Of a stretch of DNA of 64,000 bases, positions 14,012 to 57,526 are shown one piece after another. The position numbers were made by a program, and so were the translations under genes. How positions within the stretch are numbered: the stretch's first letter is position 1; every line of letters begins with the position of its first letter. The stretch comes from Longimicrobiales bacterium (GTDB lineage Bacteria; Gemmatimonadota; Gemmatimonadetes; Longimicrobiales; Gaopeijiaceae): the NCBI GenBank assembly GCA_041690395.1, contig JAWLHJ010000003.1, positions 480,001 to 544,000 of the forward strand. Reading direction: 5' to 3'. Under the pieces are notes generated by a model that was not told where the DNA came from, made no database searches, and saw nothing but the letters and a program-made list of their open reading frames with translations.

Positions 14012-14191
14012 CCTCGGGATTTCTTGGCGGACGGCCCGGGACGAGCCCGGCGTTTCAAGCCCCGAAGTTTAGAGAAGCTCCGGCTTTGGCCAAAGGGCTA
14101 GCAGGTCGCGGCGGCCGAGGCCGGCGCCGACATCGGCCGCGAGGCGTCAGCCACGGCGCGGGGCGCGGGAGCGATCCTTTTTCGCCGGCTC

Positions 14192-14355
14192 GGGAATCGT
14201 TCGAACCTCGAAAGGGTGCCGCAGCCTCGTCCTCGCGCAGGGAGCCTTCGAAAAGCCCCGTGTGGCGCGGAGATACGCCCGGAGGTTCACCGGGAGAGAT
14301 CGTTCGAAAGTCGTTCGACTTTCGAACGACTTTCGAAGCCCGCACGGAAGGGACC
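14192..14355 (+). repeat. Dispersed intergenic 164-bp element, copy A, with nested palindromes
   Basis: Aligns without gaps to the reverse complement of 32399..32562 (about 112/164 identical by hand count); perfect inverted repeats 14300-14313/14316-14329 and 14303-14318/14322-14337. Confidence 0.85.
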
Positions 14356-14442
14356 GCAGCTCGGCCCCGGAAGCCGGTCGCCCTCTACGCCGCGACCGGC
14401 CACACATCCGCGCGTGCGGGCGGCCCGGGCGCGGCCCGCCGG

Positions 14443-32398: not shown

Positions 32399-32562
32399 GG
32401 TACCTTTCGCGCGAGATGCGAAAGTCGTTCGAAAGTCGAAACACTTTCGCGAGGATCGTCGTGGTGAACCCGCGGCCGGATCCCAGCGCCACACGGAGCT
32501 TTCCGGCGTCTACGCCGTCCTGGGGGTGACTGCGCGGGTCGTTCGAAAGTCGAACGATCTCC
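32399..32562 (-). repeat. Dispersed intergenic 164-bp element, copy B (inverted relative to copy A)
   Basis: Reverse complement aligns to 14192..14355; contains GTCGTTCGAAAGTCGAA twice (near 32424 and 32538). Confidence 0.85.
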
Positions 32563-42188: not shown

Positions 42189-42848
42189 ATGAATCGCTTT
42201 CTGGTTGGCACCCTGATCCTGGCTGGCGGCTTCGCGGCGAGTGACGCCCGCCCCGCGGCCGCCCAGCTCTCCGCGAACGTGCAGATCTCGTGGCACTGGA
42301 GTGATGACGGCTGGCGGTCCGGCCCCGTGGTGGACGGGTACGTGCGGACCGCCTACCGGGATCGCGCCCCCGTCAGGGTCCGCCCGGCGCCCAGGGCGCG
42401 CCTCCGGATCCCGCCGGGCCATATGCCGCCCACCGGGCTCTGCCGCGTCTGGGTCATGGGCGTTCCGCCGGGGCACCAGCCCCCGCCGCGCCCCTGCTCG
42501 CGCGCCCTGCTCGGGTATCGCGGCGCCGACGTGGTCATCCTCCACACCCCGGCCCGGGACGGCCGGTACTGGGCGCCCGATCACCGCTGGCGCGAGCGCG
42601 GTGATCGGGACCGCTGGAACCGTGACTGGGACGACGACTGGGACGATGACGACCGGTGGGACGATGACTGGGACGACGACGATCGTTGGGACGACGACGA
42701 TCGTTGGGACGACGACGATCGTTGGGACGACGACGATCGTTGGGACGACGACGATTGGGACGATGACGACAGGTGGGAGGACGACCGCCGCCGACCGGGC
42801 CGTGGCGGGCCTCCCGGACGAGGACGCGGCCGGGGCGGACGCGGCTAG
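42189..42848 (+). CDS. Secreted low-complexity protein with IPPGHMPP motif and WDDDDR repeats
   Basis: GAGGAG upstream, signal peptide ending AAAQ, IPPGHMPPTGLCRVW..GVPPGHQPPP..C, acidic repeat tract, Arg/Gly tail. Confidence 0.8.
   Translation: MNRFLVGTLILAGGFAASDARPAAAQLSANVQISWHWSDDGWRSGPVVDGYVRTAYRDRAPVRVRPAPRARLRIPPGHMPPTGLCRVWVMGVPPGHQPPPRPCSRALLGYRGADVVILHTPARDGRYWAPDHRWRERGDRDRWNRDWDDDWDDDDRWDDDWDDDDRWDDDDRWDDDDRWDDDDRWDDDDWDDDDRWEDDRRRPGRGGPPGRGRGRGGRG
42669..42755 (+). repeat. Coding 18-bp tandem repeat TGGGACGACGACGATCGT
   Basis: Four perfect copies (42669-42740) plus a partial fifth; degenerate copies on both sides. Confidence 0.95.
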
Positions 42849-49630: not shown

Positions 49631-52284
49631 CCGACTGGGAAGTTGGGTCGGGTCCGCCCAAGCTGGCCCGACGACTTCTGGCCCTGCTGGTGGACGAGGC
49701 GCAACGCGACGACGTGGATTCGACCCTCGCGGAGCTCTTCCGTGAGCGGGTGGCCCGAGATGGCGCAGGTGCGGCGACACGATGGTACTGGCGCCAGGTG
49801 GGCGGATTCGCTGCGCGCTGGCGCCCATTCAACACGGGAATGGGGGGGTGGACGACGATGGACATGTGGACCAGAGATCTCCGGCACGGGCTGCGCTCGC
49901 TGATCCGCGCACCGGGCTTCACACTCATCGCCGTGGGGACGCTGGCGCTGGGCATCGGTGCCAACACCGCCATCTTCAGCCTGATCGCGGGCACCCTCCT
50001 GAGACCCCTTCCCTACGACCAGCCCGAGCGGCTGGTCTGGCTCTCCGATGGCCACCCGAACTTCGGGGGTGGGGGCACGAACCAATCCGTCCCCAACCTC
50101 ATGGATCTGCAGGCGGGCTCCCGCCTCATGAGTTCGTCGGCCATCTACCGGGTCCTGGGCGGCAACCTCGCCACCGACGAGGACGCGGTGCGCATCCCGA
50201 TCCTGTTCACCTCGTCGCCGATGCTCGGCGTACTGGGTGTTCCGCCCCGCCTGGGGCGCGACCTGCTTCCTACCGACGACGGCGCGGGCGCGGAGCCCGT
50301 GGCGATCCTCACCGATGATCTCTGGCGGTCCACCTTCGGCGCCGACCCCGACGTGGTCGGACGAACGGTACAGGTGGACGCCCGGCCGGTGCGCGTCATC
50401 GGGGTGCTTCCTCGCGACTTCACTTTCGAGGACGATCCCAAGCTGGTCATGGCGCTCCAACACCTGGGCGCCGACCTGAGCCGGGGGGGCAGAGGCTACA
50501 ACGGAGTGGCCCGCCTGGCCCCAGGCGCTGACCCGAGGGCACTCACCGCCGAGTTGCAAGGCATCTTCTCAGGTCTGACCGACGAGTACCCGCAGGTGAA
50601 CGAGGGGTGGTTCACCATGGCCGAGCCTCTTCAGGAGCATGTCATCGGACAGAACCGTCATTCGCTGCTTCTCCTGGGCGGTGCGGCGGCCCTCGTGCTC
50701 CTCATAGCCTGCGTCAACGTCGCCAACCTGCTGCTGGTCCGGGCCGAGCGACGTCACCGGGAGTTGGCGGTGCGGTATTCCCTGGGGGCCCGTAGGTCGG
50801 GGCTCGTCTCCCTATTCCTCTCCGAAGGTCTGGTCCTGGGCCTGGCCGGAGGCGCGCTGGGGGTCGCCGGGGCGTACGGGGGCATCGACCTGCTCGTGTC
50901 CCTGTACGGCAGCACCCTGGCTCGAGCCGACGCCGTCGGCATCGACGGAACCGTCCTTGGCATCACTCTGGCGACGTCCCTCCTGGTGGGCATCGGGGTG
51001 GGGCTGGCCCCGCTGACCCGCGTGCGCCCTGACGAGCTCCAGGGCCACCTCCGAGAAGGCGCGCGGGGCTCCTCGGGACGCGGCAGCCGGCTGGGCAACG
51101 CCCTGGTCGTGGCGGAGGTGGCCCTCTCCGTCGTAGTCGTGGCCGGCGCCGGGCTTCTGGCCAACAGCATGTGGCGTCTCCAGCAAGTGGACCTGGGTGT
51201 GCACCGCGCCGACCAGGTCATGACCTTCACGCTGTCCCTGCCTGCGGCAGCGTACCCCACGTCCGAGACGATCGCGCAGTTCACCGGTGAGCTGGATGGT
51301 CGACTGATGGCCACCCCCGGGGTGGAGGCGGTGGGCTTCGTGAACCGGCTCCCTCTCGTGGGTGGGGACAACACCACCGTCTACGTGTGGGGCGACGAGG
51401 AGCGGAAGGCCGACTTCACGTCCATCCGCTCCATCACGCCCGGGTACTTCGACGCCGTTGGTGTCCCCCTCCTGTCGGGCCGATGGCTCACCGAGGATGA
51501 GTTCCGTGGGGAGACCTCGTCGGCGATCATCAACCAGACCCTCGCCCGACAGCTCTTCGGTTCGGAGGACCCCCTGGGACAGCGGATCGACGTCCGCGGG
51601 ATCGAAGGAGGTCTGGTCGTGGTGGGCGTGGTCGCCGACATCGCCGGGGGACGCCCGGACCGTCCGGCACCCGGTGCCTTCTACTACCCCATGCGCACGC
51701 GGCTGAAACTCGCGGCGTCCCAACCGCGCTCCGCCGACGACTTCTGGGGCATGGCCGCCCTCGTCCGGACCGCGGGTGAGCCCCAGGCGCTGGTTCCCGC
51801 CTTACGGGAGGCGGTGGGCGCTGGAGACCCGGGCATGCCCTTGAGCTACGTCCGCACCCTCCAGGACATCGCCACCGACCGCCTGGGAACCCGTCGCTTC
51901 GCCTTGTCCCTGTTCGGTGTCTTTGCCGGCCTCGCACTGCTCTTGGGTACCGTGGGAATCTATGGCGTCATGTCCTACAGCGTGGCCCAACGCGCCCGCG
52001 AGATGGGGGTGAGGATGGCCTTGGGGGCCAGCCGGGGATCGGTGCTCCGTCTGGTCCTGGGCGAGAGCGCCCGCCTCACCGTTCCGGGAGTGATCCTGGG
52101 CCTGTTGGGCGCCATGGCGTCGGCGCGGGTGCTGGGCAGCCTCCTCTTCGAGGTCAGCCCGCTCGACCTGTGGACGTACGCATCGGTGGCCGCGGTCCTG
52201 GCGTTGGTCTCCGTGGCGGCCACCTGGCTCCCGGCATGGAGGGCCACGCGGGTGGATCCCATGACGAGCATGCGCGCTGAGTAA
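49627..52284 (+). CDS. Duplicated MacB/FtsX-type ABC permease (ADOP family)
   Basis: [72 protein letters not shown]. Confidence 0.93.
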
Positions 52285-54856: not shown

Positions 54857-57526
54857 CTACTCCTCCCGCAGCGCCTCCGTCGGCGCGATGCGCGTCGCCC
54901 GCAGCGCCGGCACGAGCGAGGCCGCCGTCCCGACCAGCAGGAGCCCCAGGGGGAGCACGGTGAACGTGACCGGATCGTTCTCCGAGACGCCGAACAGGAG
55001 CGAGGCCACCAACTCGCGGGCGAACCACGCCCCCGAGAGCCCGAGCAGGAGCCCCAGCACGACGGGCCGCACGCCCTCCCCGACGATCATGCGCGTGACG
55101 GCGTGCCGCCCGGCGCCCAGGGCCACGCGGATCCCGATCTCGCGGGTGCGACCGGCGACCGAGTACGACACGACGCCGTAGATACCCACGGCGGCGAGGA
55201 CGAGCGCGATCGCCGCGAACAGAACGAGGAGCGTGGTCACGAGCCGGGTGTCGGCATAGGCCGCGGTCACGGTCTCCTCGAGGGTGGTCACGTCATAGAG
55301 CGGGAGGTCGGCGTCGAAGTCCGCGACGGCACGGCGCACGGCCTCGTTCACGGTCTCCGGTCCGAGGGGGCTCCGCACGGCGACCTGATAGGTGCGGGGG
55401 AAGCCGTAGGCCGAGATCCCCGATTGGTGCGCCGGGAGATACACCTGCGGATTCGCGGCCTGGTCCACGCGGGTGTTCACCTGATCGGGGACGACGCCGA
55501 CCGCGGTGATCCACGTGGTCGCCGAGTCTCCCGTCGGATAGGCCCACCGCTTTCCGACGGCGCTCTCCCCGGGCCAGAAGGTCCGGGCCATGGTCTCGCT
55601 GACGATGCCCACCATGGCCCCGTCGGCGCGGTCGGCTTCGGTGAAGCCCCGCCCCTCCAGCACCGGGATCCCCAGGGCCTCGAAATAACCCGGGAGCACG
55701 AGGGCGATCTCCGCGCTCCAGGCCTGGTCCCCCTCCTCGCGAGGTGGACGGTCGTCGAGGAGGAAGTCCCACCGGGACGAGCTCCTCGAGTAGGGGAGCG
55801 CCGAGCTGGCGGCCACCGCGGTCACGCCCGGCAACGCCCGGAGGGACTCCACCATGCGGCCCATGTCCTCCGGCGCCTCGTCGTCCTCGGGATAGGACGC
55901 GGCCGGGAGGCTGACGGTGAACGTGAGGACGTTCTCCACCTCGAGTCCGGGATCGGCGGCGGTGAGCGCGGCCATGGTCCGGCCCATGAGCCCCGCCACG
56001 ATGACCACCACGAGCCCGAGGGCCACCTCACCCGTCACGAGCGCACGGCGCAACCTGGAGCGGGCGCGGCTCCCCGTGGACCGCGAGCCGGCCACGGCGA
56101 CCGACCGAGCGACCTTCCGACTCGCGAGGAGCGCCGGCGCCACGCCGAAGAGAAGGGTGGTCGCCACCGCCGCGGCCAGAGCGAAGAGGAGGACCGTGCC
56201 GTCCACCTGCACCTGGTCCAGCCGCGGAAGCGCGCCCGGATCCATGGCGATGAGCAGCCGCGTCCCGCCATACGCCAGAGCCAGGCCCAGCACGGCGCCA
56301 CCCGCCGCCAGAAGAAGCGACTCGGTCACCAGCTGCCGCGTGATGCGGCCGGCACCGGCCCCGAGGGCCGCCCGCACCGCCACCTCCGCGTGCCTGCGCT
56401 CACCCCGCGCCAGCAGGAGGTTGGCCACGTTGGCGCATCCGATGAGGAGGACCAACCCGACCGCGACCGAGAGGGAGAGCAGGATGCCCGGCGCGTCACC
56501 CAGCATATCCGCCTTCAGCGTCGCGGCCCAGGCGAAGTGAGCCACATTGTGCTCGAACTCCTGGGCCCATCGGTCTCCGATCAGGGTGAGCTCCGCGTCC
56601 AGGTCGGCCTGGGTCACCCCGGCTTGCCTGCGCCCCACCGCGCCCCACCCGTGGGCGCCCCGCCCGTAGCCCGACGCGGCCGCACGGTCGATCCCGAGGG
56701 GCAGATACGCTTCGGCCATCCCCGGAAACGCGAAGCCCCCGGGCATGACGCCCACCACCCGCGTGGCCTCACCGTTCACGTCGAGGGAGGTCCCGACCAC
56801 CTGCGGGTCGCCCCCGAACCGGCGCTGCCAGAGGTCGTGCCCCAACACGATGACCGGCGCCGCACCCGGGGTGTCGTCCTCGGCGGTGAACCACCGTCCG
56901 TGCAGGGGCGTCACGCCGAGAACGGGAAACATGTCCCGGGAGAAGAGCCCCACGGCCACGCGCTCGGCCTCGGCGCCGTCTCCGGTGAGCGTGCGGGTGG
57001 AGTTCGTCCACATCCCCAGGCGCTCGAAGCCTCGCACGCCCTCCTGGATGTCGTAGAACTCCGGCACCGAGAGGAAGAACTTCTCGATGTCGAAGCCGGA
57101 GGCCGGGAGGTACCGGGTCCAGACGATGGAGAGGCGGTCGGGCTCGGGATACGGTAGGGGCCGGAGCAGCACGGCGTTCAGGACGCTGAACACGGCCGTG
57201 CCCGCTCCGATGGCCACGGCGAGGGTCAGCACCGCGGTGGTCGCGAAGGCCGGCGCCCGGCGGAGCTGTCGCCATGCGAAGGCCAGGTTCTGCCGCGTCT
57301 CGTCCCAGAGGTGCCCTATCGTCGTCTTCATCTCCCGTCCCCTCCCCTGTTGGCGCATCCTCGCCTTCACCCGGTCCAGGTCCCCGAGGCGGCGCAGCGC
57401 CTCGGCCCGGGCGTCGTCTTCACTCCACCCCTGCCCGACCAGCTCCCTCACACGCATGTCCACGTGGAAGCGGAGCTCCTCCTCCACCTCCCGGTCCAGG
57501 GACGGACGCTCGATGCGCGGGTCCAC
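54857..57526 (-). CDS. Duplicated MacB/FtsX-type ABC permease (ADOP family) with N-terminal prefix domain
   Basis: EVEEELRFHVDMR..ARAEALRRLGD prefix; TLAVAIGAGTAVFS, LIGCANVANLLL, GIYGVVSYSV, REIGIRVALGA. Confidence 0.93.
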   Translation of the reverse strand: MDPRIERPSLDREVEEELRFHVDMRVRELVGQGWSEDDARAEALRRLGDLDRVKARMRQQGRGREMKTTIGHLWDETRQNLAFAWRQLRRAPAFATTAVLTLAVAIGAGTAVFSVLNAVLLRPLPYPEPDRLSIVWTRYLPASGFDIEKFFLSVPEFYDIQEGVRGFERLGMWTNSTRTLTGDGAEAERVAVGLFSRDMFPVLGVTPLHGRWFTAEDDTPGAAPVIVLGHDLWQRRFGGDPQVVGTSLDVNGEATRVVGVMPGGFAFPGMAEAYLPLGIDRAAASGYGRGAHGWGAVGRRQAGVTQADLDAELTLIGDRWAQEFEHNVAHFAWAATLKADMLGDAPGILLSLSVAVGLVLLIGCANVANLLLARGERRHAEVAVRAALGAGAGRITRQLVTESLLLAAGGAVLGLALAYGGTRLLIAMDPGALPRLDQVQVDGTVLLFALAAAVATTLLFGVAPALLASRKVARSVAVAGSRSTGSRARSRLRRALVTGEVALGLVVVIVAGLMGRTMAALTAADPGLEVENVLTFTVSLPAASYPEDDEAPEDMGRMVESLRALPGVTAVAASSALPYSRSSSRWDFLLDDRPPREEGDQAWSAEIALVLPGYFEALGIPVLEGRGFTEADRADGAMVGIVSETMARTFWPGESAVGKRWAYPTGDSATTWITAVGVVPDQVNTRVDQAANPQVYLPAHQSGISAYGFPRTYQVAVRSPLGPETVNEAVRRAVADFDADLPLYDVTTLEETVTAAYADTRLVTTLLVLFAAIALVLAAVGIYGVVSYSVAGRTREIGIRVALGAGRHAVTRMIVGEGVRPVVLGLLLGLSGAWFARELVASLLFGVSENDPVTFTVLPLGLLLVGTAASLVPALRATRIAPTEALREE

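Follow-up and report, generated by a model that had tools for sequence, protein, structure and literature searches.

What is a 164-bp non-coding element that occurs twice in one stretch of a Longimicrobiales genome, and why has its length stayed fixed while its letters diverged? The window, by which we mean the whole 64,000-nucleotide stretch analysed, belongs to a genome designated here as G000. An earlier note on the window had described a gapless inverted match of about 68% overall and about 75% at one end, and measurement bears this out: copy A and the reverse complement of copy B are identical at 112 of 164 positions (68.3%) and at 80 of the last 106 (75.5%; BLAST E 7e-21). They share a 22-nt core with the same letters, again as described. 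A second core at the other end is also present, but its letters are perfect rather than degenerate, and it lies 114 bp away from centre to centre rather than about 118. The core had further been credited with two mutually exclusive stems. Both are perfect in copy A, but the longest perfect stem in copy B is 8 bp, so that a two-stem switch would be private to copy A. Family likeness continues past the borders first drawn for the element, for about 25 nt leftward and, weakly, for about 50 nt rightward. By Pfam names, copy A is flanked by a PDZ-domain gene and a biotin carboxylase gene and copy B by a GGDEF gene and a CBS-domain gene, in opposite orientations relative to their local genes. The coordinates of these and other features are collected in Table 1. 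Elsewhere, the window holds tandem 18-bp repeats (nine overlapping matches) in a frame that would encode Asp/Trp-rich repeats, and an inverted match of 99 nt at 77% identity, which is probably a paralogous coding stretch because its first arm lies within a MacB/FtsX permease gene.

Table 1. Positions of the features discussed. Plain numbers are positions in the window; entries beginning with G000 give contig and position in that genome.
Feature	Position	Strand	Remarks
Extra DNA holding copy A (approximate)	14080..14440	.	PDZ-domain gene stop to promoter word of biotin carboxylase gene
Copy A	14192..14355		
Copy A, remnant of marR-like translation-start region	14173..14191	-	purine-rich, precedes ATG in source locus; 25-copy consensus
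Copy A, gene-proximal palindrome TTCGA-N3-TCGAA, predicted operator 1	14200..14212	.	
Copy A, spacer, length-constrained, drifting at about the neutral rate	14213..14313	.	about 52% identity among copies
Copy A, extra inner half-site of this copy only, gives rise to the alternative stems of 14 bp and 16 bp	14303..14308	.	absent from family consensus
Copy A, perfect 16-bp stem	14303..14337		loop of 3
Copy A, alternative 14-bp stem	14300..14329		loop of only 2 nt
Copy A, gene-distal palindrome TTCGA-CTT-TCGAA, predicted operator 2, 114 bp from operator 1	14314..14326	.	
Copy A, conserved outer half-site, one 11-bp repeat past operator 2	14332..14337	.	83-100% per position, 24 copies
Copy B, same family	32399..32562	-	cores 32542..32554 and 32428..32440, 114 bp apart
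Tandem 18-bp repeats	42612..42800		
Inverted match, 99 nt	50695..50793 and 56354..56452		
Copy next to the marR-like gene	G000:C1:480160-480322		
marR-like gene, single intact copy in G000	G000:C1:480339-480749		ATG at 480339; 136-aa MarR-fold product P0001
Candidate LexA box (L194)	G000:C2:103575-103594		
Other young repeats	G000:C2:82178-82482, C5:10475-10755, C3:429054-429332, C1:555415-555594		
Integron-like array	G000:C1:983000-1018088 and C2:763000-775842		spans the ends of two contigs
Tyrosine integrase gene of the array	G000:C2:763019-764299		

The two copies belong to a larger family. Iterated nhmmer searches found 25 copies in the 4.33-Mb G000, 24 of them full-length and each scoring at least 107 bits, with no tail of weak family matches; related genomes hold others, as had been anticipated. 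The highest pairwise identity among the G000 copies does not exceed 73%. By our own codon-model gene calls all 25 are intergenic, two touching a gene end by 3 bp. Sixteen lie between tandem, five between convergent and four between divergent genes, which is no different from other intergenic regions (p=0.30), and copies show neither enrichment upstream of genes nor an orientation bias towards them. No common theme was found among the flanking genes. A coherent regulon is consequently not evident. A few neighbours do start close enough for regulation, such as a DUF427 gene at a distance of 21 bp from one of the copies, but the five copies between convergent genes also retain their cores. Copies are spread unevenly among contigs (p=0.03), with 12 of the 25 on the contig that carries the marR-like gene described below; no macrodomain pattern was found, and both replichores carry copies. 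The lineage-specific, dispersed, non-coding family proposed at the outset is real, while its reading as a structured RNA or as a REP/REPIN with a HUH/RAYT partner is not supported by the results below. At least four other, young repeat families in G000, of 170-310 bp and with copies 88-99% identical, resemble ordinary MITEs; no multicopy repeat of transposase length was seen in the genome.

What the copies keep is a pair of palindromes. TTCGA-N3-TCGAA occurs 52 times in G000, 49 of them inside the 25 copies, and the same half-sites with other spacer lengths give 0-23 sites. A matrix scan of G000 found no strong solo site outside the copies; the sites come as pairs. Of 500 core positions in the G000 copies only one is mismatched, where drift at the rate of the intervening spacer, whose pairwise identity is 52.5%, would have produced about 166 mismatches. 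Perfect cores make up 49 of 50 in G000, 34 of 38 in the related G002 (a set chosen by core pattern, in which one row is a misaligned short copy) and 13 of 32 in G003. Compensatory changes are absent from the cores, which points to recognition of specific letters rather than to pairing. Palindrome repair by template switching was likewise rejected as the cause of conservation, because it should leave changes in both arms, and the cores have none.

Eight G002 copies, including that at the site of copy B, were compared with their G000 counterparts at the same sites. Over the seven full-length pairs, identity is 81% in the 27-bp ends and 61% in the spacers, compared with 70% at 14,356 four-fold degenerate sites. 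The spacer of the positional orthologue ranks only 2nd to 19th among 24 spacers and the copy tree is star-like for both genomes, which fits one old burst followed by vertical inheritance.

The suspicion that fixed length reflects a constraint on spacing holds up well. The cores are 111-114 bp apart in 24 of the 25 G000 copies (69 bp in the other), and between same-site copies of G000 and G002 the distance has changed by 0-2 bp in seven of eight pairs and by 33 bp in the eighth, with the flanks of the same eight pairs shifted by 0-109 bp. Thirteen off-mode spacings (46, 46, 69, 69, 70, 71, 79, 88, 92, 93, 105, 129 and 148 bp) fit an 11-bp phase relative to 113 (p=0.006), a post hoc result for one of seven periods tried; the same test at 10.5 bp gives p=0.36, and spacings 105, 129 and 88 are off phase. 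Within the spacer, neither an 11-bp periodicity of conservation (p=0.50) nor hidden half-sites were found; a central 10-mer, GGCGCGGAGA in copy A, is somewhat better kept (central block p=0.006). Several of the G002 copies L037, L038, L042, L045 and L049 differ from their G000 orthologues at one shared base of the outer half-site, which suggests that in this species the preference of the binder has shifted or relaxed.

A candidate binder is encoded beside one of the copies, which ends 17 bp before a 136-aa open reading frame, P0001. The gene-side consensus of all 25 copies corresponds to the GGAGG ribosome site and the letters that precede the ATG of this gene. These letters mark the element as derived from the control region that precedes a MarR-type gene elsewhere in the genome. 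No sigma-70 consensus promoter was found in the source copy. P0001 scores above the Pfam cut-off for MarR/MarR_2 and also matches an ArsR-type helix-turn-helix. Its model has a MarR winged-helix fold (pLDDT 84.9; Foldseek top match MepR, E 4e-6) and no catalytic domain. It is predicted as a homodimer (score 0.74 against 0.00 for the best control), by a mark that 20 of 30 solved homodimers and one of 23 monomers reach and that P0001 may pass because it resembles MarR dimers already solved; between runs, at least 92% of contacts are shared, with pLDDT of at least 78. The subfamily is small, with 17 representatives at E<=1e-30 among 1.84 billion, and its homologues have variable C-terminal tails after an RRFTSG-like point. 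Relatives gave one weak match in viral contigs and none in plasmids.

Gene and doublet also occur together. Among 401 genomes of the order, P0001 has nine matches at E<=1e-8, seven of which reach E<1e-20, and in all seven genomes with such a close orthologue a doublet lies directly upstream of the gene, with spacings of 113, 113, 129, 112, 148, 115 and 112 bp. One of the two weaker matches has a single core, the other none. Metagenome contig L106 repeats the arrangement of the seven. A loose doublet pattern was found in 12 of the 401 genomes, namely the seven with an orthologue (2-24 doublets each), G003 and four others whose matches, single or tandem, look unrelated as judged from sequence alone; with those four set aside, doublets occur in eight of 401. 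Within genera g1 and g50, six genomes have both, nine have neither and one has copies with gene fragments only (Fisher p=9e-4, which is overstated because related genomes are not independent). The same four of nine g50 genomes have gene and doublet, and in g1 both are missing from G001, G004, G005 and G006. The counts themselves are not independent, since the genomes all come from a single family, in three of its genera. A sample of 330 other genomes from the phylum, which overlaps that of the order, yielded neither the gene nor the doublet. Exact-core scans found one locus in genome contigs and none in viral contigs. A metagenome doublet scan gave 42 loci, mostly unrelated tandem or satellite repeats, of which about nine high-GC loci resemble the family on inspection. 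As read from the genomes, then, the link between protein and sites rests on position and on co-occurrence in three genera of one family. In three metagenome contigs whose genes look archaeal (L077, L097 and L101), palindrome pairs 107-112 bp apart adjoin small antitoxin-like or catabolic genes, without a marR-like gene or spacer similarity, and are probably operators of a different regulator.

Copies and gene alike have arrived by insertion. The empty orthologous sites that had been sought exist: at the site of copy A, the element is missing in G003, G004 and G005, and the distance from upstream stop to downstream promoter is 371 bp in G000 against 59 bp (G003), 37 bp (G004) and 261 bp (G005, with other DNA), the downstream gene's promoter word being kept in all. 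Similarly, the site of the gene and its doublet in G000 and G002 is empty in G001, G004, G005 and G006. The neighbours of this cassette differ between G000/G002, G267/G358/G384, G008 and G330, where it lies beside a tRNA-Pro gene. Judged by these flanks, gene and doublet have been inserted as a unit, and at least four different neighbourhoods hold them. No target duplication was seen at the one complete young copy (L137), and six empty-site alignments are too eroded for their junctions to be read.

The shape of the mobile unit is clearest in G003, where the flank on the gene side continues into marR codons. Three of 22 loci there match the protein profile, and six distinct loci match the marR-like DNA profile (E<0.01) and retain different parts of the gene. 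In G000, no significant MarR coding remnant was found next to the 24 copies away from the gene. The G003 copies are younger, with spacer identity of 74%, and the youngest are about 340 bp long with sharp ends, two of them 96.8% identical. One end of these reads RRFTSG, like the C-terminus of a P0001-type protein, and the copies look like internally deleted forms of the cassette, which itself would extend from the gene end through the doublet to about 120 bp beyond. Their true ends share only 4 bp and carry no long terminal inverted repeats. The far end of the cassette matched only other copies (five genomes). Much of the core decay in G003 is one inherited change common to many copies. Only gene fragments were found in this genome, which is 87% complete and has a sequence gap at the site of the G000 gene, so that an intact marR-like gene may be unassembled. 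In the tree, one G002 copy, L259 (G002:C163), falls among the G003 copies; it carries their core change, and its right-hand neighbour is also that of G003 copy L144 (G003:C183), as would result from transfer between lineages or from an error in binning. Contigs are often broken within the element or the marR-like gene (G003 L138, L140 and L149-L153; G267:C6/C330; G330:C91/C130), which may reflect near-identical copies or within-population variation.

We consider it reasonably likely that the element is the copied control region of a MarR-fold gene, and that its palindromes are operators which the dimer of the encoded protein would bind and probably bridge across about ten helical turns. The parts of this reading differ in strength. 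Binding of the cores by P0001 seems quite probable. That the paired sites are bridged into a loop, for which the MarR protein ScoC offers a precedent, has about an even chance; that the benefit would be local silencing or insulation is a tentative suggestion. We propose that many sites received copies of a mobile cassette, consisting of the gene, its operator pair and about 120 bp of far flank, through an enzyme acting in trans. Copying in the G000 lineage would have been a single old burst that preceded the split from G002. Deletion would then have eroded the gene part, with operators and spacing kept by selection in place. Each bound pair would form a small repressor loop that silences the copied promoter, insulating its neighbours or at some sites regulating them. 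This loop function would be the weakest step of the explanation. G003 offers a partial natural experiment, since only fragments of the gene were found in it and its cores are decaying although its copies are younger.

A different account would make the family a selfish MITE- or REPIN-like element, with the palindromes as sites of some transposase and the MarR-type gene as a passenger. The two cores do form terminal inverted repeats, some orthologous sites are empty and the young G003 copies are sharp-ended and nearly identical; further, a single gene beside a doublet with dispersed doublets elsewhere parallels RAYT and REPIN in the available text of PMC3337134 and PMC3116915. However, the G000 copies are well diverged, the eight checked share their sites with G002 and their cores are still intact, which indicates that selection acts without movement. 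The youngest G003 copies, in turn, have broken cores, so that movement does not need the cores, and the mobile unit ends far outside the palindromes. Y1_Tnp (PF01797), the mark of the suggested HUH/RAYT link, was not found in any of six element-bearing genomes searched (G000, G002, G003, G008, G267 and G330; 71-98% complete), nor DDE_Tnp_1 in any of five tested. IS110 occurs in G003 and G330 only, shares no 11-mer with a young copy and was rejected as the mobiliser for want of any sequence link to the element in either genome. As far as these genomes tell, none of the three transposase families tracks the element, and we regard the selfish reading as improbable.

The comparison with REPINs and MITEs is nonetheless instructive. 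As described in the accessible parts of PMC3116915 and PMC3337134, REPINs too are dispersed extragenic palindrome doublets with few preferred spacings and divergent spacers, in which the doublet rather than the singlet is conserved, a single-copy gene lies beside a doublet and occurrence is patchy among close relatives. Their spacers are defined there by hairpins with compensatory changes. The present spacer has neither, its copies number 2-25 per genome, and the partner is a MarR-fold regulator instead of a HUH tyrosine transposase; moreover, unlike the REPINs of those texts, the doublet is itself the region upstream of the partner gene, and pieces of that gene occur in copies. REPIN membership was accordingly rejected: the doublet is there, but the spacer hairpin is not, and no RAYT gene was found in the six genomes. 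With MIC231 and MITEs, as portrayed in the text available from PMC6199540, the element shares a unit of about 700 bp, a passenger gene, the lack of a transposase and presence at several sites, together with shorter, internally deleted derivatives that keep both ends, here in G003. It is multicopy and non-autonomous, with filled and empty sites. It departs from that portrait in having 4 bp in place of long terminal inverted repeats at its true ends; no target duplication was seen at the one complete young copy, and no cognate transposase was found among Y1, DDE_Tnp_1 and IS110. Further, its most conserved part is internal and has been under selection long after movement stopped.

Another way to dispense with a transposase would be to make the MarR-type protein itself the mobility machinery, bridging the palindromes and recruiting a host recombinase or topoisomerase to copy or move the cassette. 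It is the only open reading frame in the unit, the youngest G003 copies have their left end at its last codons, the very point after which its homologues' tails vary, and no tested transposase tracks the element. Yet P0001 has a plain MarR fold with no catalytic domain, the latest spread took place in G003, a genome that yielded only fragments of the gene and broken cores, and recent copies are lacking in G000 despite its gene and perfect sites. We think this quite unlikely.

The palindromes might alternatively be bound by a host-wide regulator such as LexA, with the marR-like gene merely one target. A candidate LexA box of the order, the direct repeat TTCGG-N6-TTCGG, often present twice, precedes lexA in 27 of 29 genomes (lexA loci L195-L223), and in G000 it is also found upstream of recA, a dnaE2-like polymerase gene and other genes; we found no description of this box in the part of the literature held as open-licence PMC and bioRxiv text. 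The element resembles it in having TTCG repeats 11 bp apart, and at 13.1 bits the source copy's far flank outscores one putative SOS promoter (11.6). On the other hand, the 25 elements average 5.2 bits, with that 13.1 as their maximum, compared with 11.6-32.3 for seven putative SOS promoters, and their invariant feature is a palindrome ending in A rather than a direct repeat ending in G. LexA is moreover present in 39 of 41 relatives, and doublets in only eight of 401 genomes. Given the poor matrix scores and this distribution, LexA does not explain the doublets; as an SOS box the element fails in both motif and range, and a host-wide regulator is very unlikely. A structured RNA or single-strand DNA switch with two alternative hairpins is hardly credible: beyond the perfect stems of copy A and the pairing of 88.6% of cells in two local hairpins, an Rfam scan of the window returned only tRNA, none of 20 pairs predicted by RNAalifold over 24 copies covaries, the one double change in the 22 pairs of the local hairpins is reached by 328 of 500 shuffles, the two window copies show no notable folding as RNA (z -1.33 and -1.16), spacers show none as single-stranded DNA (mean z 0.14, with 0 of 48 strands under z -2), copies have no orientation bias to genes, and the alternative stems are missing in copy B.

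SlmA/SBS, MatP/matS and RacA/ram are widely conserved chromosome-organising systems that use single sites with macrodomain-specific placement. With these, and with the GalR mega-loops as outlined in the available text of PMC5110547, the element shares some two dozen scattered palindromes and one small DNA-binding protein. As in such sets, many sites are not placed to regulate a promoter; unlike them, the sites here are homologous fixed-spacing pairs, confined to few genera and placed unevenly without being clearly domain-specific. Integron attC sites carry RYYYAAC...GTTRRRY ends on one long imperfect hairpin and are arrayed between cassettes. An attC identity was rejected, the copies being dispersed and the spacer not folding. 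G000 does have attC-like repeats, of a different sequence family, in a large integron-like array that includes a tyrosine integrase gene and in which dozens of repeats of 155-165 bp separate small cassettes, many of them resembling toxin-antitoxin pairs. At L293 (G003:C32), an IS110-family transposase gene directly follows a piece of the attC-like repeat of this array (first 55 nt upstream). Some IS110 elements target attC sites, and the layout at L293 is as expected for such an insertion sequence.

The copied MarR control region also has a parallel in MarR autoregulation. In the available text of PMC12297555, the MarR protein ScoC loops DNA between two operators. P0001 is predicted to have the same winged-helix dimer fold, its palindromes lie just upstream of its own gene and, as with ScoC, two sites are separated by a near-integral number of helical turns. 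That text calls ScoC the only known natively tetrameric MarR protein, and P0001 is predicted as a dimer; P0001 is also shorter, its model lacks the sixth helix, and here the whole operator pair has been multiplied by copying, with sites only as pairs. By analogy, the element would work like a MarR operator pair multiplied in the fashion of a MITE or of the mobile insertion cassette in the accessible portion of PMC6199540. No description of the family or of its arrangement was found in open-licence PMC and bioRxiv text, although one may still be in print.

How a new bacterial transcription factor gains many binding sites at once is an open question. Here genome sequences alone reveal the gene, its source operator pair, the dispersed copies, the empty sites and a lineage whose sites are decaying, and the system predicts a specific protein-DNA pair and a dependence on helical phase. 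Further, a REPIN-like doublet pattern can be tied to a regulator instead of a HUH transposase. A bolder and rather doubtful extension is that a lone MarR-type protein, in the place of a RAYT, seeds its own fixed-spacing operator pairs, which the host then keeps as protein-bridged microloops with insulating or architectural roles. If true, this would be a case of a bacterial transcription factor's site network arising through the copying of its own promoter.
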